A stretch of DNA of 9,875 nucleotides from a virus (Duplodnaviria > Heunggongvirae > Uroviricota > Caudoviricetes): IMG/VR virus record IMGVR_UViG_2681813267_000008, positions 1 to 9,875 of that record. One strand, given 5' to 3'. Positions within the stretch are counted from its first letter, which is position 1; each line of letters starts with the position of its first letter. A program made the translations under genes and the position numbers. A model generated the notes under the pieces. That model was not told the origin of the DNA. It made no database searches and saw nothing but the letters and a program-made list of their open reading frames with translations. Below, piece by piece: positions 2,770-9,875 of the stretch.

Positions 2770-3188
2770 TCCAGTATCCGGATGGTAAGCCGCCGGTATG
2801 GGCAAAGTGTACGAAAGGTGTGTATCCGTCTTACTGGGAAGAATGGAAAAAAGTCAGGGAGGTGGTAAAAGTTGCCTGTCCGGAGTGTGGCGGAAAGGGT
2901 GAGGTTTCCACCGCCTGTAAGGATTGCCGTGGGCGTGGTGTCGCCATTCATCGTGAAGAGTCGGTAAAACGTGGTATGCCTGTTATCAGAGACTGCCAGC
3001 GTTGTGGTGGTCGTGGCTATGAAAGACTACCATCAACGGAGGCATTTAATGCTATATGCGAGGTGACAAACCAGATAACACGCGCGTCATGGGAAAAAAC
3101 AGTTAAGAAATTTTATGATGCGCTGGTGACCCGGTTTGATATTGAAGAAGCATGGGCTGAGCGGCAGTTAAAAAAGGTAACTAGGTAA
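2770..3188 (+). pseudogene. 3' fragment of a paralogous Q-like gene (C-terminal ~139 codons), beginning at the ambiguous base 2769
   Basis: 2770-3188 aligns to 1185-1600 of the full Q-like gene with a few substitutions. A 7-nt insertion (TAACAAG) relative to copy 1 creates a stop at 3186-3188, giving a ...KKVTR C-terminus. No start codon or N-terminal half. Confidence 0.5.
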
Positions 3189-3193
3189 CAAGG

Positions 3194-3221
3194 TTGATTT
3201 TTCCGGAATCTGTGGTAAATT
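3194..3221 (+). promoter_or_regulatory. pR'-like late promoter candidate (copy 2)
   Basis: TTGATT at 3194-3199, 16-bp spacer, TAAATT at 3216-3221. Same elements as 1601-1628 but here located after the Q stop codon. Confidence 0.35.
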
Positions 3222-3270
3222 CGTCATAACGATGGGCGTTTTATGCCTGACGTTAGAAGAGTTTCTACAA

Positions 3271-3292
3271 CCCGCCGCCGAGCGGGTTTTTT
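3271..3292 (+). terminator. tR'-like rho-independent terminator (copy 2)
   Basis: CCCGC / GCGGG stem followed by TTTTTT; identical to 1678-1699. Confidence 0.6.
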
Positions 3293-3412
3293 ATGACTGA
3301 AATCGCGTCAGTACAGTAAACGCGCTGGTGGCGGTGAATACCTGTCTTTCAGCTTGCTGGCTTTTTCGACAAGAGTTATTGGTGTGTCACGTTAACCGGA
3401 AAAGGAAAAGAC

Positions 3413-3610
3413 ATGCTAAAACAGCAGGATATGACAGAAACCGCCAGAGTGGTGTTTAATGAATTAAGCGTTACCGAACCGGCGACAGTCGGGGAGATAG
3501 CGCAGAATACTTACCTTTCACGCGAACGCTGCCAGTTAATACTGACCCAGCTGGTTATGGCGGGTCTGGCAGACTATCAGTTCGGTTGTTACAGACGCCT
3601 TCCGCAGTGA
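3413..3610 (+). CDS. Small winged-helix/HTH protein, PapI/FaeA-like (65 aa)
   Basis: ATG 3413 is preceded by AAGGAAAAG. Residues TVGEIAQNTYLSRERCQLILTQLVMAGL form a helix-turn-helix pattern resembling PapI/FaeA regulators (EIA ... AGM/L); the family call is pattern-based from memory. An intrinsic terminator follows directly. Confidence 0.5.
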   Translation: MLKQQDMTETARVVFNELSVTEPATVGEIAQNTYLSRERCQLILTQLVMAGLADYQFGCYRRLPQ

Positions 3611-3620
3611 AGGCTTTTTT
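3597..3620 (+). terminator. Rho-independent terminator after the small HTH ORF
   Basis: Stem GCCTTC (3597-3602) / GAAGGC (3609-3614), loop CGCAGT, then TTTTTT at 3615-3620. Confidence 0.6.
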
Positions 3621-3637
3621 ATTTGTGGTAAATGGGC

Positions 3638-3668
3638 GGCTGGTGGGTGTTAGGGGCACCCACCAGCC
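3638..3668. repeat. Perfect 12-bp inverted repeat with 7-nt spacer (GGCTGGTGGGTG ttagggg CACCCACCAGCC)
   Basis: Exact reverse-complement arms read directly from the sequence. Lies between the HTH ORF terminator and the methyltransferase gene. No U-tract on either strand, so it is more likely an operator or processing site than a terminator. Confidence 0.5.
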
Positions 3669-3760
3669 ATCTGCTCATGCGTTGGGTTCACAAGCAAACC
3701 TCAGGCCCACTGCTTTGCGCAAAAGCAGAATGAGCCTATCAGAGACAGGCTTAATGATCC

Positions 3761-4819
3761 ATGCTTAATACTGTAAAAATATCCAGTTGTGAGTTAATCA
3801 ACGCCGACTGCCTGGAATTTATCCGGTCGTTACCCGAAAATTCTGTTGACCTGATAGTCACGGACCCGCCGTACTTTAAAGTGAAGCCTGAGGGCTGGGA
3901 TAACCAGTGGAAGGGCGACGATGATTACCTGAAGTGGCTGGACCAGTGTCTGGCGCAGTTCTGGCGGGTGCTGAAACCTGCCGGAAGTCTTTACCTGTTC
4001 TGTGGTCATCGCCTGGCATCTGATATCGAAATCATGATGCGTGAACGCTTCAGTGTGCTGAACCATATTATCTGGGCGAAGCCGTCCGGACGCTGGAACG
4101 GATGCAACAAGGAAAGCCTGCGGGCGTATTTCCCCGCCACAGAGCGCATTCTGTTCGCGGAACATTATCAGGGGCCGTATCGTCCGAAAGATGCCGGGTA
4201 TGCGGCGAAGGGCAGTGCACTGAAACAGCATGTGATGGCCCCGCTGATTTCTTACTTTCGTGATGCGCGAGCTGCCCTGGGGATAACGGCAAAACAGATT
4301 GCAGATGCCACAGGAAAGAAAAACATGGTGTCGCACTGGTTCAGTGCCGGTCAGTGGCAGTTGCCGAATGAAAGCGATTATCTGAAATTACAGGCGCTGT
4401 TTGCCCGGGTGGCAGAAGAGAAGCATCGGCGTGGTGAACTGGAAAAGCTCCACCACCAGCTGGTGGATACGTATACCTCACTGAACCGGCAGTATGCGGA
4501 GCTGCTGAGTGAATATAAACATCTGCGGCGGTATTTTGGCGTGACGGTGCAGGTGCCGTATACCGATGTGTGGACGCATAAACCGGTGCAGTTCTATCCC
4601 GGGAAACATCCGTGCGAAAAACCGGCAGAAATGCTGCAGCAGATAATCAGCGCTAGCAGTCGTCCGGGTGACCTGATTGCAGATTTTTTCATGGGGTTGG
4701 GTTCGACAGTGAAAGCGGCACTGGCGCTCGGGCGTCGTGCAATTGGCGTTGAGCTGGAGACTGAACGTTTTGAGCAGACGGTTCGGGAAGTACAGGATTT
4801 AGTCAGCCAGAACGGATGA
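3761..4819 (+). CDS. DNA methyltransferase, beta-class amino-MTase (N6-adenine or N4-cytosine), 352 aa, with a central insertion
   Basis: Motif order is IV then I: DPPY at residues 35-38, VLKPAGSLYLF, NHIIWAKP, then HPCEKP and DFFMGLGST near the C-terminus. A ~170-aa insertion contains an HTH-like stretch (ITAKQIADATGKK). No partner restriction-endonuclease ORF is present. Confidence 0.85.
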   Translation: MLNTVKISSCELINADCLEFIRSLPENSVDLIVTDPPYFKVKPEGWDNQWKGDDDYLKWLDQCLAQFWRVLKPAGSLYLFCGHRLASDIEIMMRERFSVLNHIIWAKPSGRWNGCNKESLRAYFPATERILFAEHYQGPYRPKDAGYAAKGSALKQHVMAPLISYFRDARAALGITAKQIADATGKKNMVSHWFSAGQWQLPNESDYLKLQALFARVAEEKHRRGELEKLHHQLVDTYTSLNRQYAELLSEYKHLRRYFGVTVQVPYTDVWTHKPVQFYPGKHPCEKPAEMLQQIISASSRPGDLIADFFMGLGSTVKAALALGRRAIGVELETERFEQTVREVQDLVSQNG

Positions 4820-4859
4820 TATTGAAGAATTAATTACGCGTCGTTATTATGCGGCTCCC

Positions 4860-4935
4860 GGCCCTTTAGCTCAGTGGTGAGAGCGAGCGACTCATAATCG
4901 CCAGGTCGCTGGTTCAAATCCAGCAAGGGCCACCA
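4860..4935 (+). tRNA. ileZ: tRNA-Ile2-like, anticodon CAU (copy 2)
   Basis: Identical to 1739-1814. Confidence 0.8.
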
Positions 4936-4942
4936 TCACATA

Positions 4943-5019
4943 CCGCCATTAGCTCATCAGGAAAGAGCGCCAGCCTTCGAAGCTGGCTGCGCGGGGTTCA
5001 AGTCCCCGATGGCGGTCCA
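4943..5019 (+). tRNA. argN: tRNA-Arg, anticodon UCG (reads CGA)
   Basis: Acceptor CCGCCAT/ATGGCGG, D-arm GCTC..GAGC, anticodon stem CCAGC/GCTGG with loop CTTCGAA, T-arm CGGGG-TTCAAGT-CCCCG, encoded CCA. The 5' C start is unusual but the fold is complete. Confidence 0.75.
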
Positions 5020-5032
5020 TTATCTGCATCAT

Positions 5033-5109
5033 GCGTTGTTAGCTCAGCCGGACAGAGCAATTGCCTTCTAAGCAATCGGTCACTGGTTCGAATCCAGTAC
5101 AGCGCGCCA
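5033..5109 (+). tRNA. argO: tRNA-Arg, anticodon UCU (copy 2)
   Basis: Identical to 1915-1991. Confidence 0.8.
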
Positions 5110-5219
5110 TATTCATTCTTCCAGATTCCTTCCGGCAGAGCCTTATACTGAAATATACCTGGCTCAGGATATTGTTGAAAATATTTTATGTTTGTCAAAA
5201 ATAAAAGTTCTGTTAAGTA

Positions 5220-5573
5220 TTGATTGAGTGTTTGTTATACGGTCTAATGGTTTTTTCAGCATTAAATATTTATCATTCATATGGTGTGGGTAGAGTGAAT
5301 ATTGATGAGGCGTCGGGGTGTTTCATCCTTAGGCAGCGTATTGATATAGTCAATGCAGCACGAGCAAAGGCCTTCAGCCGTTTGACAGTTTTGTTCTGTA
5401 CTCCTGATCGTCTTTCGGGAAGAGACGTTATTATTCTGAATAGTGATGCTATACAGAGGGTTTGCGATGAGTTCATGGTTGCTAATTCAGAATTATTTGC
5501 TCTTGTTCAGGAGTACAACAGAATAGCCAGGACCTGTGGTATGGATGAACTTCGGATTACTCATCTGGGGTAG
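5220..5573 (+). CDS. Hypothetical protein (second copy of the 117-aa ORF)
   Basis: Translation identical to 2102-2455. Confidence 0.35.
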   Translation: MIECLLYGLMVFSALNIYHSYGVGRVNIDEASGCFILRQRIDIVNAARAKAFSRLTVLFCTPDRLSGRDVIILNSDAIQRVCDEFMVANSELFALVQEYNRIARTCGMDELRITHLG

Positions 5574-5966
5574 ATACATATCTGGATTATCACCTGTTAC
5601 GGTAAAAAGTGATTGCTTACTGTTTTTGTGAATGGCATTGCAGCAGCCGGATAATGTCAGTGCTGGCTGACGGTGTGCTGGTGGCGGGTGTGGTGGTTGT
5701 TGCTTTCCCGTTGCTGAAAAAGAAAACGCCAGACTGTTAGCCGGGTATCAGTTAGCGGGAGAAATTTTTAAATACTTCACAATTCAGGCGGTTGACTGTT
5801 GTCTGGTTTGCGGGGAGTTTGTTAAAAGAAACTGGCATGGTGAATCCCCCTGTGCGGAGGGGCAATCAGCGAGTAGGTATATGGGATAATCGCGGATTCA
5901 GGTGCTGGTACTGAATTCACCGGGAGGCACCCGGCACCATGCAATGGCACATAGCGCCACTCTCCA

Positions 5967-6000
5967 GCCCCTCTCCGGAGGGGCTGTTTATATTGATTTT
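5967..6000 (+). terminator. GC-rich hairpin with U-rich tail (terminator-like)
   Basis: Stem CCCCTC (5967-5972) / GAGGGG (5977-5982), tetraloop TCCG, then CTGTTTATATTGATTTTG. Recurs at about 7716-7740 and, partly, after the gap at 9074-9110. Confidence 0.4.
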
Positions 6001-6131
6001 GTCAGATGTGANGGTGGGTGTTAGGGGCACCCACCAGCCATCTGCTCATGCGTTGGGTTCACAAGCAAACCTCAGGCCCACTGCTTTGCGCAAAAGCAGA
6101 ATGAGCCTATCAGAGACAGGCTTAATGATCC

Positions 6132-7190
6132 ATGCTTAATACTGTAAAAATATCCAGTTGTGAGTTAATCAACGCCGACTGCCTGGAATTTATCCGGTCG
6201 TTACCCGAAAATTCTGTTGACCTGATAGTCACGGACCCGCCGTACTTTAAAGTGAAGCCTGAGGGCTGGGATAACCAGTGGAAGGGCGACGATGATTACC
6301 TGAAGTGGCTGGACCAGTGTCTGGCGCAGTTCTGGCGGGTGCTGAAACCTGCCGGAAGTCTTTACCTGTTCTGTGGTCATCGCCTGGCATCTGATATCGA
6401 AATCATGATGCGTGAACGCTTCAGTGTGCTGAACCATATTATCTGGGCGAAGCCGTCCGGACGCTGGAACGGATGCAACAAGGAAAGCCTGCGGGCGTAT
6501 TTCCCCGCCACAGAGCGCATTCTGTTCGCGGAACATTATCAGGGGCCGTATCGTCCGAAAGATGCCGGGTATGCGGCGAAGGGCAGTGCACTGAAACAGC
6601 ATGTGATGGCCCCGCTGATTTCTTACTTTCGTGATGCGCGAGCTGCCCTGGGGATAACGGCAAAACAGATTGCAGATGCCACAGGAAAGAAAAACATGGT
6701 GTCGCACTGGTTCAGTGCCGGTCAGTGGCAGTTGCCGAATGAAAGCGATTATCTGAAATTACAGGCGCTGTTTGCCCGGGTGGCAGAAGAGAAGCATCGG
6801 CGTGGTGAACTGGAAAAGCTCCACCACCAGCTGGTGGATACGTATACCTCACTGAACCGGCAGTATGCGGAGCTGCTGAGTGAATATAAACATCTGCGGC
6901 GGTATTTTGGCGTGACGGTGCAGGTGCCGTATACCGATGTGTGGACGCATAAACCGGTGCAGTTCTATCCCGGGAAACATCCGTGCGAAAAACCGGCAGA
7001 AATGCTGCAGCAGATAATCAGCGCTAGCAGTCGTCCGGGTGACCTGATTGCAGATTTTTTCATGGGGTTGGGTTCGACAGTGAAAGCGGCACTGGCGCTC
7101 GGGCGTCGTGCAATTGGCGTTGAGCTGGAGACTGAACGTTTTGAGCAGACGGTTCGGGAAGTACAGGATTTAGTCAGCCAGAACGGATGA
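6132..7190 (+). CDS. DNA methyltransferase, beta-class amino-MTase (second identical copy)
   Basis: 352-aa translation identical to 3761-4819. Upstream homology begins exactly at the ambiguous base 6012, inside the left arm of the 12-bp inverted repeat. Confidence 0.85.
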   Translation: MLNTVKISSCELINADCLEFIRSLPENSVDLIVTDPPYFKVKPEGWDNQWKGDDDYLKWLDQCLAQFWRVLKPAGSLYLFCGHRLASDIEIMMRERFSVLNHIIWAKPSGRWNGCNKESLRAYFPATERILFAEHYQGPYRPKDAGYAAKGSALKQHVMAPLISYFRDARAALGITAKQIADATGKKNMVSHWFSAGQWQLPNESDYLKLQALFARVAEEKHRRGELEKLHHQLVDTYTSLNRQYAELLSEYKHLRRYFGVTVQVPYTDVWTHKPVQFYPGKHPCEKPAEMLQQIISASSRPGDLIADFFMGLGSTVKAALALGRRAIGVELETERFEQTVREVQDLVSQNG

Positions 7191-7230
7191 TATTGAAGAA
7201 TTAATTACGCGTCGTTATTATGCGGCTCCC

Positions 7231-7306
7231 GGCCCTTTAGCTCAGTGGTGAGAGCGAGCGACTCATAATCGCCAGGTCGCTGGTTCAAATCCAGCAAGGG
7301 CCACCA
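7231..7306 (+). tRNA. ileZ: tRNA-Ile2-like, anticodon CAU (copy 3)
   Basis: Identical to 4860-4935. Confidence 0.8.
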
Positions 7307-7313
7307 TCACATA

Positions 7314-7390
7314 CCGCCATTAGCTCATCAGGAAAGAGCGCCAGCCTTCGAAGCTGGCTGCGCGGGGTTCAAGTCCCCGATGGCGGTCCA
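7314..7390 (+). tRNA. argN: tRNA-Arg, anticodon UCG (copy 3)
   Basis: Identical to 4943-5019. Confidence 0.75.
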
Positions 7391-7403
7391 TTATCTGCAT
7401 CAT

Positions 7404-7480
7404 GCGTTGTTAGCTCAGCCGGACAGAGCAATTGCCTTCTAAGCAATCGGTCACTGGTTCGAATCCAGTACAACGCGCCA
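7404..7480 (+). tRNA. argO: tRNA-Arg, anticodon UCU (copy 3; acceptor stem fully Watson-Crick)
   Basis: Same fold as the other copies, but the 3' acceptor strand is ACAACGC instead of ACAGCGC, which converts the G-U pair to A-U. Confidence 0.8.
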
Positions 7481-7494
7481 CACTTATTTTCCCT

Positions 7495-7520
7495 GGCTCG
7501 CTTTTGCGGGCCTTTTTTTT
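7495..7520 (+). terminator. Rho-independent terminator immediately after the tRNA array
   Basis: Stem GGCTCGC / GCGGGCC (one G-U pair), loop TTTT, then TTTTTTTT at 7513-7520. Confidence 0.55.
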
Positions 7521-7967
7521 AAATGTCTCACAATTCAGACGGTTGACAGTTGTCTGTTTTGCGGGGAGTTTGTTAAAAGAAACTGGCATGGTGAATCCCC
7601 CTGTGCGGAGGGGCAATCAGCGAGTAGGTATATGGGATAATCGCGGATTCAGGTGCTGGTACTGAATTCACCGGGAGGCACCCGGCATCATGCAATGGCA
7701 CATAGCGCCACTCTCCAGCCCTCTCCGGAGGGGCTTTTCTGTGCCGGATACATCACAGTTTCTGGAACCTTAGGTACTACAGTATCAGTCAGGGTGCTAT
7801 ATTTTCAGATGTGATGAAAGCCTGTCAGCAGGCAGGGCGTATCGGAAATGACCCAGTAGAGAAAACGTTGACTCAGATACCGGTGCTGAGTTACCGGGAA
7901 ACCGGCATCACATGACCGCTATCCTGAGGTGTACTGGCAATAGCGGACACTACCATTTGTTCTTTTT

Positions 7968-8786
7968 TTAAGCAGCCATCTGATGATATTTTTCCCTGAA
8001 GGCTGCCGGGGAGATATTCCCCAGACGAGAGTGACGACGCTGACGATTGTAGAAAATCTCAATGTATTCCCGTATTACTGAGATGGCTTCATCCCGGTTA
8101 TTAAAACGATAGTGGCTCAGGCTCTCATTTTTCAGCGTTCCCCAGAAGCTTTCCATCGGAGCGTTGTCGTAACAGTTACCTTTACGCGACATTGATGTTT
8201 TCAGACCAGACTGCTCCTGTATGACCCGGTAATCGTATGCGCAGTACTGTGAACCTCGATCAGAGTGGTGGATTAGCCCGGCAGGTGGGCGCTGGCTCCT
8301 GAGCGCCATAAACAGGGCTTTACCTGTCAGCTCTTTTGTCATGCGCTCTCCCATGGCGTAGCCGACAATTTCGCACGTATAAACATCTTTGATGCCAGCG
8401 AGGTACAACCATCCCTCCTGTGTGGCAACATACGTCAGGTCCGCCACCCAGACCTGATTTGGTGCTGTAGGAGCGAACGTCTGGTTCAGCAGATTTGGCG
8501 CAACTGGCAGATTGTGGTTCGAGTTCGTAGTCGCTCTGAACTTGCGTTTCTGCTTACAGCGTAGCCTTAGCTCCTTACGAAGACGTGCCAGTCGGTCACG
8601 ACCAACGATGATGCCATTCTCTGCCAGCTCCGTCTGGAGCCGCCGGGTTCCATATGTTTCGCGAGTGCGGATATGTGCCACCTTAATCTCCAGTTTTAGC
8701 CGCTCATCACTTTGTTTTCTGTCTGAGGGTTCATGCTGTACCCAGTTGTAATAACCGCTCCTGGATACACCAAATACCTGACACAT
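7968..8786 (-). CDS. IS3-family transposase OrfB (DDE integrase core), 272 aa from the annotated ATG; naturally expressed as an OrfAB frameshift fusion
   Basis: Catalytic residues in VWVADLTY, HHSDRGSQY and YDNAPMESF. The frame stays open upstream into the orfA overlap. Confidence 0.9.
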   Translation of the reverse strand: MCQVFGVSRSGYYNWVQHEPSDRKQSDERLKLEIKVAHIRTRETYGTRRLQTELAENGIIVGRDRLARLRKELRLRCKQKRKFRATTNSNHNLPVAPNLLNQTFAPTAPNQVWVADLTYVATQEGWLYLAGIKDVYTCEIVGYAMGERMTKELTGKALFMALRSQRPPAGLIHHSDRGSQYCAYDYRVIQEQSGLKTSMSRKGNCYDNAPMESFWGTLKNESLSHYRFNNRDEAISVIREYIEIFYNRQRRHSRLGNISPAAFREKYHQMAA

Positions 8787-8821
8787 CGCTTCAATGGGAA
8801 ATTGTTGTCGCCATTGTTCGA

Positions 8822-9062
8822 TTAACGCGTATTTTTCAGCGACTCCTGTGCAAAATACGCTGTTGCTTTTTTTAATATATCTCGCTCAAGGCGAGCTTCA
8901 TTTAACGCCTTACGCAGTTGCAGAATTTCAGATTCCAGTTCAGCCACCGTGCGGGAACCAGGAGTACCGAGCCCTTTTCTGGCGGCGGTAACCCATTGTC
9001 CTAAAGTGCCTTCAGGAAGAGATAATCGGGAAGCGCCTTCACTGATCGAAAGTTGATTTTCA
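8822..9062 (-). CDS. IS3-family transposase OrfA, 3' portion only (5' end lost in the N gap)
   Basis: Minus-strand translation reads ...GQWVTAARKGLGTPGSRTVAELESEILQLRKALNEARLERDILKKATAYFAQESLKNTR then stop (plus 8822-8824). Leucine-zipper-like heptads and an A AAA AAA slippery site are present. Confidence 0.75.
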
Positions 9063-9073
9063 NNNNNNNNNNN
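9063..9073. other. Assembly gap (11 N)
   Basis: Run of N. Sequence on the left is IS interior; sequence on the right resumes in the terminator-like hairpin repeat. Confidence 0.95.
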
Positions 9074-9121
9074 CTCCGGAGGGGCTGTTTATATTGATTT
9101 TGTCAGATGTGAGTAAACTCC

Positions 9122-9457
9122 TTATGGACTTTGTTGTTTTAGTCCATAAGGACATATTTGCAGAGTGCAACGGTTATTAAAGCATTCATTCAATACGTTA
9201 TCTGTATTTGTAGGGCATTCCTGGCTATTTTTGATTGAATTCCAGAATGTTTTATTGAATGGTACTACGTTGTAAATGGTTACAGGTAGCACTTTGTTAT
9301 TGAGCATGATGCCTGTGTGAGTCAGTGTAAATATACTTTCAGGAGGTAAGAAAGCATCCGATTGATACCAGATTATTAATTTTATTTTACTCCATATGAC
9401 TGAAAAAGATATTCCGCATGATGGCTGGATAACTGTATCAATCACAATCCACTTCAT
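9122..9457 (-). CDS. Hypothetical Cys-containing protein (111 aa) in an AT-rich cargo block
   Basis: True ATG with SD AAGGAA 5 nt upstream on the minus strand. The ORF ends inside a perfect 11-bp-stem hairpin (9120-9151). The surrounding ~600 bp is visibly AT-rich. I recognise no family. Confidence 0.45.
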
Positions 9458-9717
9458 TTAGTTTCCTTGTTTATGCCTTGCTGGTGATGTTCTGAAAAGT
9501 ATAAATGATATTTTTGAATGTAAACCATAGAGCAGAATTATTTTTCTGATGTTGTTTATTGTTTATTTAAATGCAGGGTGGTTTATATCTCGTCTTGTAG
9601 TTTATCCATGCATATCTGCTTGATAATCAGGTTTTTATTTAAGGTATGGTTTTGTGTTTTTTCTGTATTACATGTCAGGTATTTTAAAGAATTATTTTTC
9701 AGATGGTGGAAAGAACC

Positions 9718-9844
9718 ATGGCATTTAAACACTATGATGTTGTCAGGGCGGCGCCGCCGTCAGATCTTGCGGAAAAGCTGACACATAAACTGAAAGAGGG
9801 CTGGCAGCCGTTTGGTAGTCCGGTGGCCATAACCCCTTATACCC
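9718..9844 (+). CDS. Small hypothetical prophage protein, interrupted after codon 42 by the IS3-family element
   Basis: ATG 9718 is preceded by GGTGGA. Translation MAFKHYDVVRAAPPSDLAEKLTHKLKEGWQPFGSPVAITPYT runs in frame straight into the IS terminus at 9845. Confidence 0.35.
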
Positions 9845-9875
9845 TGAGGTGTACTGGCAATAGCGGACACTACCA
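9845..9875 (-). mobile_element. Terminus of a second copy of the same IS3-family element (continues beyond the window)
   Basis: 9845-9875 (TGAGGTGTACTGGCAATAGCGGACACTACCA) is identical to 7925-7955; the flanking DNA differs, so this is an independent insertion. Confidence 0.65.

Follow-up and report, generated by a model that had tools for sequence, protein, structure and literature searches.

Prophages of Escherichia coli O104:H4 C227-11 encode two methyltransferases, M.EcoGII and M.EcoGI, described by Murray et al. 2018 (PMC5778455). M.EcoGII methylates adenine whatever its sequence context, in double-stranded DNA, single-stranded DNA and RNA, is fully active alone and blocks many restriction enzymes; its constitutive expression leads to slower growth and unstable clones, it is not expressed in its lysogenic host, and its authors proposed that it is turned on when the prophage launches an infection (PMC5778455). 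The same study names phage 1720a-02 as the bearer of a very similar enzyme (PMC5778455). Homologues from O111 Shiga toxin-producing E. coli, 92-93% similar, are listed as non-specific and their activity went undetected in lysogen methylomes (PMC6602927), and studies based on REBASE label homologues in the same 92-93% band 'nonspecific'. Here we analyze a 9,875-nt stretch of viral DNA (hereafter the window; IMG/VR record IMGVR_UViG_2681813267_000008, Caudoviricetes) in which a block of about 1.5 kb, located between the tR' terminator of a lambdoid late operon and a tRNA array, carries a small open reading frame (ORF) of 65 aa and a 352-aa ORF predicted to encode a methyltransferase of the M.EcoGII family.

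An initial annotation had presented this block as inserted cargo in which a PapI/FaeA-like protein and an orphan methyltransferase might form a self-contained epigenetic or anti-restriction module. Our analysis points to anti-restriction, by late and promiscuous methylation of progeny DNA, as the probable role of the block. The methyltransferase is preceded by a leader that is a conserved, covarying RNA structure of the + strand, absent from Rfam, and the small ORF often accompanies the enzyme but is dispensable. The block itself is an ordinary, already sequenced and partly characterized module, and its enzyme family is known and sold as a reagent; what is newly brought out is the leader RNA, together with PHROG 331, the family of the small protein, as a narrow and strongly conserved companion.

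The late-operon block and its orphan methyltransferase

The block and the landmarks that flank it are arranged as follows.

2770-3188, + strand: antiterminator Q, C-terminal part only, truncated by the N at 2769 (full copy at 782-1636)
3194-3221, + strand: putative late promoter pR' (TTGATT, 16 nt, TAAATT), read from the sequence
3269-3295, + strand: tR'-like intrinsic terminator, a 7-bp GC-rich stem (3269-3288) and a T run
3353-3379, + strand: untranslated motif CTTGCTG-N13-GAGTTAT, upstream of the small ORF
3413-3610, + strand: small ORF, 65 aa, with AAGGA at 3402-3406 as ribosome-binding site
3597-3620, + strand: intrinsic terminator after the small ORF, a 6-bp stem (3597-3614) and TTTTTT
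3632-3678, + strand: leader hairpin 1, with basal helix 3632-3637/3673-3678, 4-nt bulge and upper stem 3638-3649/3657-3668
3685-3760, + strand: leader domain 2, a long-range helix of GGUUCA/AAGC (3685-3695) with GCUU/UGAUCC (3749-3760) that abuts the AUG
3761-4819, + strand: methyltransferase ORF, 352 aa, predicted M.EcoGII-family beta-class N6-adenine methyltransferase
4860-5109, + strand: tRNA array (CAU, Arg-UCG, Arg-UCU), found with ARAGORN and the Rfam tRNA model

The 352-aa product matches the Pfam family N6_N4_Mtase (PF01555) over residues 29-340 with 144.1 bits (cut-off 26.7; E-value 7.9e-42), and a DPPY motif (residues 35-38, nt 3863-3874) and an FxGxG motif (residues 310-314, nt 4688-4702) follow each other in the order characteristic of the beta class. 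D35-P36-P37-Y38 and F310-x-G312-x-G314 are invariant in eight relatives with identities down to 48%. The nearest solved relatives, which include M.RsrI, CcrM and MboIIA, are of the beta class and align in two blocks around the middle target-recognition region. The protein shares 324 of 349 residues (~93%) with M.EcoGII, the reference for which was taken from the machine-read supplement of the SUPREM paper (PMC11551740) and may contain a few reading errors. It resembles M.EcoGII also in its motif order, similar length, prophage location and orphan status, and departs from it by about 25 substitutions, including a Ser to Leu change inside FxGxG (FMGLG) that retains the glycines, and by three additional C-terminal residues. 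No nuclease or endonuclease gene adjoins the methyltransferase, which has Q and tR' upstream and tRNAs downstream. These features identify the 352-aa protein, as far as sequence comparison can, as an orphan M.EcoGII-family beta-class N6/N4 methyltransferase, and on both the enzyme class and the missing endonuclease the initial annotation was right.

The block is a widespread prophage module and forms the first cargo of the lambdoid late operon. Of 5,426 complete E. coli genomes, 2,007 contain 80% or more of it, the best of them matching it at only 97.5%, and it was found in 21 phage records. phiP27, SfV, mEp460 and 1720a-02 share the arrangement Q, terminator, small ORF and methyltransferase, followed by tRNAs/stx or by the lysis genes S-R-Rz; 1720a-02, the phage noted above for its enzyme, carries the same block as the window, and SfV has a terminator annotated at the place corresponding to tR'. 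The full Q copy in the window matches Pfam Antiterm (PF03589) with an E-value of 7e-55. The pR'-like site scores 8/12, under the threshold of the promoter scanner, and is presumed to be pR' from its position between Q and tR' and its resemblance to lambda pR'.

Self-comparison of the window places the block (3295-4819) between tR' and the tRNAs in the second of two copies of this region, and copy 1 lacks exactly these positions, with only TAT/AT microhomology at the joints. The difference in content between the copies described in the initial annotation is thereby upheld, but not the insertion that it assumed. Shiga toxin (Stx) phages of the 933W type (Stx2a) retain only the last 111-153 nt of an M.EcoGII-like gene between Q and the tRNAs (933W, NC_000924, 20969-21079; PA8, KP682374, 25626-25778), and since 933W and PA8 keep this 3' remnant before the tRNAs, some lineages must have reached the short form by deletion. 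Some records annotate the 3' remnant as a 50-aa 'putative DNA methylase'.

The structured leader before the methyltransferase

The two ORFs are separated by a spacer that in its long form spans 145-156 nt, with a leader of about 130 nt, and whose sequence and length are better kept than the flanking proteins. A coding role for the spacer was rejected because closely related copies, of 152-156 nt, differ by single-base indels. The perfect 12-bp inverted repeat and the palindrome pointed out in the initial annotation are both present. The repeat (3638-3649 / 3657-3668), confirmed in a repeat search, constitutes the upper stem of hairpin 1, and the palindrome CTGCTTT..AAAGCAG (3710-3728) corresponds to the inner stem 3710-3716/3722-3728, which RNAalifold encloses, together with a stem at 3704-3708/3732-3736, within the long-range helix of domain 2.

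The manner in which the 12-bp repeat varies is informative. Its arms change by transitions in one arm that turn G-C into G-U, and by full compensatory replacement, reading GGCTGGTGGGTG/CACCCACCAGCC in E. coli, GACTGTAAAAGTG/CACCTTTACAGTC in Proteus and GGCAGAAGAGTG/CACTGCTTCTGCC in Yersinia. Because these changes are G-U-compatible and compensatory, and because the sequence differs completely between genera, the repeat is to be regarded as an RNA stem and not as DNA contacted by a protein. All 21 of 21 diverse sequences fold alike, with a long upper stem of differing sequence above a basal AUGGGC helix and a 4-nt bulge. Per-sequence folding was used for hairpin 1, since both MAFFT and model-fitted alignments mishandle the variable length of the upper stem, and for the same reason the pair counts understate the covariation of that stem. 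Across 49 sequences, 97.3% of cells were paired, versus 26-45% when the partners were slid, and seven pairs were doubly changed (slid controls, 1-3; shuffles, 1.6); the set of 21 more diverse sequences gave the same pairing picture, with more noise.

With a covariance model of the leader, the + strand reaches 180 bits and the - strand about 18, and the model picks up the leader immediately in front of orthologues that have no small ORF. Covariance models (R1/R2) also identify it in the N15-like phage phiKO2 and, more weakly, in Vibrio phage MAR. The distance from GAGCYTA to the ATG is fixed at 22 nt: a DNA pattern for the leader has 119 sites in IMG/VR, and at 115 of the 117 that could be judged, a methyltransferase ORF begins with its ATG exactly 22 nt further on. 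The methyltransferase AUG is not preceded by a Shine-Dalgarno sequence. Searches of the window and six divergent loci against Rfam 15 at permissive thresholds returned no match to the leader at or near threshold. Read most simply, the leader would throttle translation of a harmful enzyme or serve as a site at which its RNA is processed.

The small winged-helix protein and the proposed control of the enzyme

The 65-aa ORF, for which the ribosome-binding site and the terminator of its own proposed in the initial annotation were both recovered, belongs to PHROG 331 (phrog_331, 1.4e-37). Its 334 homologues are all enterobacterial (Escherichia, Shigella, Salmonella, Klebsiella, Citrobacter, Buttiauxella) and share 27 invariant columns; the protein is identical to L23 of phiP27. 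The family is narrow, comprising 61 clusters at 50% identity among 1.84 billion protein representatives. An AlphaFold2 model (predicted local distance difference test score, pLDDT, of 78.8 on average) shows three helices followed by a beta wing, and the ORF can be considered a real conserved gene whose product is predicted to be a winged-helix protein, a fold that the initial annotation had anticipated. Structural matches are generic, spanning Z-alpha domains, IclR, MarR and ArsR regulators and SelB, as well as the N-terminal dimerization domains of S-adenosylmethionine-dependent O-methyltransferases.

Kinship with PapI/FaeA, also proposed initially, was rejected by four tests, one of profiles, one with hhalign and two of structure. 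The FaeA/PapI profile (PF04703) does not match the 65-aa protein even at E<=10, in a run that scored PapI itself at 110.3 bits, hhalign against PapI yields a probability of 1.4%, and PapI is absent from the top structural matches. The protein is furthermore acidic (isoelectric point, pI, 5.1; net charge -1.5), as are its Xenorhabdus and Proteus versions, whereas PapI has a pI of 9.25. TrmB (PF01978) reaches 18.0 bits, under its cut-off of 25.6 (E-value 0.0026), and none of the NCBIfam models matches; the NCBI name 'TrmB family' reflects weak winged-helix similarity only.

Among close relatives the two genes are nearly inseparable, with the methyltransferase downstream in 73 of 74 small-ORF loci and the small ORF accompanying the enzyme in 78 of 79; the exception among the 74 is IMG/VR contig L013, which has the small ORF and hairpin 1 but no methyltransferase. 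The pair is always on the same strand, with the small ORF immediately upstream and 96-156 nt between the genes, and it persists, with spacers of 146 and 150 nt, in two contigs from metagenomes in which identity of the small protein is down to 50% and 66%. Further away the association loosens. About forty species-representative loci were listed with a methyltransferase of at least 54% identity, and nearly half have the small ORF, a figure that covers genera outside Escherichia, Salmonella and Klebsiella. Among these listed matches, it is present in Scandinavium, Citrobacter, Xenorhabdus, Photorhabdus, Proteus and Providencia and absent beside the methyltransferase in Kosakonia, Rosenbergiella, Enterobacter, Yersinia, Ewingella, Tatumella and Vibrio. 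The pairing proposed in the initial annotation is hence conserved in close relatives but not obligate. Some loci without the 65-aa ORF have, a few hundred nt ahead of the methyltransferase, other small ORFs 75-83 aa long (phiKO2, L164, 1997-2224; Pseudocitrobacter, L189, ~2520-2733; Vibrio, L192, 2226-2477). These look winged-helix-like, the one from Pseudocitrobacter matches the small-protein family profile weakly (E-value 0.016), and from sequence they may be very distant counterparts of the 65-aa ORF.

A promoter scan found no sigma-70-like site on the + strand inside 3296-4819, and two intrinsic terminators lie upstream of the methyltransferase, the one after the small ORF not being kept in mEp460, L162 and Citrobacter L169. 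The block invariably lies behind Q and tR', so that its expression probably has to await Q antitermination, and its position suggests that the small ORF and the methyltransferase are expressed only via Q-dependent read-through, which fits the published silence of M.EcoGII relatives in lysogens. An account in which the enzyme is silent in the lysogen, and is made once Q lets RNA polymerase past pR'-tR' and the second terminator, would then run as follows. As a member of the M.EcoGII family, the methyltransferase would add N6-methyl groups to adenines whatever the surrounding sequence; replicated phage DNA would become heavily methylated late in the lytic cycle, before packaging; and virions would enter the next host shielded, judging from the published properties of the enzyme, from many adenine-methylation-sensitive restriction systems. 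Control would be exerted in two layers, the first being the ~130-nt leader, whose last helix pairs the 12 nt before the AUG, and the second, most likely, the co-transcribed acidic winged-helix protein, acting as an accessory factor that modulates the enzyme or its expression and is dispensable for catalysis. This protein is carried by many Enterobacterales prophages, of Escherichia, Shigella, Salmonella, Klebsiella, Citrobacter, Proteus, Providencia and Xenorhabdus. Of the roles put forward initially, anti-restriction is accordingly the one that we consider likeliest, given the strong identity of the predicted protein to a characterized enzyme and its consistent position in the late operon.

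Several points weigh against this account. To our knowledge, no experiment shows M.EcoGII-type enzymes protecting phage DNA in vivo. The sequence-blind activity of the present variant is presumed across its ~25 differences from M.EcoGII, the substitution in FxGxG among them, and exclusively late expression is presumed from position. The motif at 3353-3379 could be an unconventional promoter, allowing expression in the lysogen: in an alignment of upstream regions, CTTGCTG-N13-GAGTTAT followed by TGTRTGT recurs from E. coli through to Xenorhabdus and Proteus, persisting where the small proteins are far more diverged, although it does not fit a sigma-70 promoter. The covariation of the leader, finally, is moderate, and in the 21-sequence set one slid control equals the count of doubly changed cells.

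A more ambitious extension of the anti-restriction account is possible, if doubtful: that the leader is an undescribed, widely conserved cis-regulatory RNA gating a sequence-blind methylase, with PHROG 331 as a dedicated partner acting on the RNA or on the enzyme. If true, such a three-part control module would govern an enzyme now widely used as a chromatin-mapping reagent. In any event, the leader offers a testable handle on how a phage holds a host-damaging, sequence-blind methylase off until the last minutes of infection.

Other explanations concern mainly what the small protein does. It might be an unrelated neighbor, an independent late-operon 'moron' for counter-defense or host manipulation that merely shares with the methyltransferase a recombination-tolerant slot after tR'. 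Other cargo is also found in the slot, for example a GIY-YIG nuclease in phiP27 and, in L162, a toxin-antitoxin pair; many genera have the methyltransferase with its leader but no small ORF, and L013 keeps the small ORF without the methyltransferase. We nevertheless regard this explanation as rather unlikely, for the small ORF sits always immediately upstream on the same strand and at near-constant distance, its narrow family is confined to this context, and no small-ORF locus with visible surroundings lies off this slot, the only one lacking the methyltransferase, L013, retaining hairpin 1.

A direct partnership, in which the winged-helix protein would bind the methyltransferase and alter its targets (toward phage DNA, away from host RNA, or to a particular RNA), or would bind the leader RNA and set translation, draws on the strand, spacing and persistence of the pair down to 50% small-protein identity, and on an acidic surface that suits a protein partner better than DNA. 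There is also a precedent in M.ECPA8_3172P of Stx phage PA8, which is non-specific alone and gains a preference for 16S rRNA with the small subunit PNB-2 (bioRxiv 10.1101/2023.09.20.558713). That pair, however, is unrelated and lies in the early-left region, M.EcoGII is fully active alone (PMC5778455), and about half of the orthologues in the genera listed above do without the small ORF, all of which makes a partnership of this kind unlikely. Were it true that the small protein modulates substrate choice, the finding would bear on phage counter-defense and on the engineering of M.EcoGII-type tools.

It is quite improbable that the winged-helix protein binds the 12-bp repeat as an operator and times or represses methyltransferase transcription in the way of controller (C) proteins. 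In its favor are the DNA-binding type of fold of a small protein encoded just ahead of a harmful methyltransferase, the perfect palindromic repeat between the two genes and the conserved synteny. As an operator, however, the repeat was rejected both by its pattern of variation, which carries the signature of an RNA stem, and by the presence of hairpin and leader without the small ORF; there is no promoter-like site near it, the small protein is acidic in most lineages, and no endonuclease gene accompanies the enzyme. C proteins, moreover, are of the Xre helix-turn-helix type and not winged-helix proteins, which further counts against this explanation.

A heritable on/off epigenetic switch, in which a PapI-like protein and a Dam-like methylase would act at specific GATC sites, can be dismissed as extremely unlikely: the small protein is winged-helix like PapI and most relatives keep a GATC immediately ahead of the methyltransferase start codon, but this GATC is missing in Acerihabitans and phiKO2, the small protein fails the PapI profile, hhalign and structural comparisons and has the opposite charge, the context is a phage late operon with no fimbrial genes, and the PapI/Dam reading is unsupported because the enzyme is ~93% identical to M.EcoGII, which lacks sequence specificity and is silent in lysogens. 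The methyltransferase matches a well-characterized orphan prophage enzyme, which is largely the outcome that the initial annotation had named as refuting its proposal, and the self-contained epigenetic module is not supported. The corrective value of the analysis lies here, in that the small protein is not PapI-like, the module is no epigenetic switch and the repeat is no operator.

Composition of the window and comparison with described systems

Ns occur singly at 2769 and 6012 and as a run of eleven at 9063-9073, and the window is a draft scaffold of four pieces joined by Ns, not a continuous stretch of genome.

1-2768, piece A: rusA, Q, tR', tRNAs, 117-aa ORF
2770-6011, piece B: end of Q, tR', the 1.5-kb block, tRNAs, 117-aa ORF
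6013-9062, piece C: second half of the spacer, identical methyltransferase, tRNAs, IS3-family element
6013-7190, + strand, within piece C: second copy, with the 3' two-thirds of the leader and the methyltransferase; the contig start falls inside hairpin 1
9074-9875, piece D

In self-comparison, 1185-1701 equals 2770-3294 at 97.9% identity, 1699-2768 equals 4820-5886, and 3642-5122 is 99.7% identical to 6013-7492; the second methyltransferase copy (6132-7190) encodes a protein identical to the product of 3761-4819. Because the internal repeats each begin directly after an N, the copies are separate draft-assembly contigs, and they probably represent different prophages or repeat paths rather than a demonstrated tandem array. 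There is an exact repeat of 5973-6011 at 9074-9112. In IMG/VR contig L085, pieces A, D and C follow a different order, again with an N at this point; being itself N-joined inside hairpin 1, L085 was discounted as a case of a methyltransferase without the small ORF.

Stx phages annotate the tRNAs of the array as ileZ/argN/argO, the CAU tRNA being ileZ. The array of copy 1 (1739-1991) consists of two tRNAs 100 nt apart, a form also found in phiP27; the middle tRNA-Arg(UCG) was not called there, and was called in copies 2 and 3. The only sigma-70-like site within 3100-4900 (TTGAAG-17-TATTAT, 9/12, 4822-4850) closely follows the methyltransferase stop, precedes the first tRNA by 10 nt and may be the promoter of the array. 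Matches to the Rfam small RNA STnc100 (RF02076) were obtained downstream of the tRNA arrays at 5806-5995 and 7557-7746 (+ strand; 132 and 124 bits, gathering threshold 47), a third copy being probably cut by the N at 2769. About 110 nt past the tRNAs, roughly where Stx phages have stxA/stxB, lies a 117-aa ORF (2102-2455 and 5220-5573, + strand) that belongs to PHROG 2873 (3.8e-70) and to no Pfam family. An IS3-family transposase (7968-8786, - strand; NCBIfam, 332 bits) is associated with repeat ends at 7920-7955 and 9840-9875, the latter a second copy of the element end at the end of the window; the element is presumably akin to Shigella IS600, and, as the best complete E. coli genome matches the block at no more than 97.5%, the window may derive from Shigella. 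Piece D contains a 111-aa ORF (9122-9457, - strand) of PHROG 4407 (2.9e-71).

Compared with systems other than M.EcoGII, the block shows likenesses of varying depth. With PapI/FaeA (PF04703), which act in pilus phase variation together with Dam and Lrp, the small protein shares a single winged-helix domain of ~65-77 aa, but it has no family or profile match, its net charge is opposite, its genomic context is another, and the methylase beside it is predicted to be non-specific and not expressed in the lysogen. Restriction-modification C proteins offer the parallel of a small regulator-like gene just upstream of a methyltransferase that is harmful if mistimed; they differ in that the block has no endonuclease, its small protein has a winged-helix fold and its palindrome behaves as an RNA stem and is present without the protein. 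M.ECPA8_3172P-PNB-2 likewise unites a methyltransferase of an Stx phage with a small companion protein, and is reported to be constitutively expressed (bioRxiv 10.1101/2023.09.20.558713). It was rejected as the same system, given that the PA8 pair consists of a 208-aa enzyme and a 143-aa partner encoded early-left on the other strand; of an M.EcoGII-like gene, PA8 itself has only the 153-nt remnant between Q and the tRNAs.

Polycistronic phage mRNAs contain RNase III processing hairpins and structured leaders, such as the early sites of T7 and the N leader of lambda. The methyltransferase leader resembles these as a long, near-perfect, asymmetrically bulged hairpin between two genes of one transcript, with the downstream start paired; it has no sequence relationship to them and no Rfam match, and the resemblance is one of architecture alone. 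The gene pairs closest to that of the window are L23-L24 of phiP27, orf47-orf48 of SfV and gp52-gp53 of mEp460, for which no functional study was found in the searched literature. They are the same two genes, in the same order, with a spacer of ~150 nt and in the same place after Q/tR', and they represent the same module as the block of the window, with no difference of substance.

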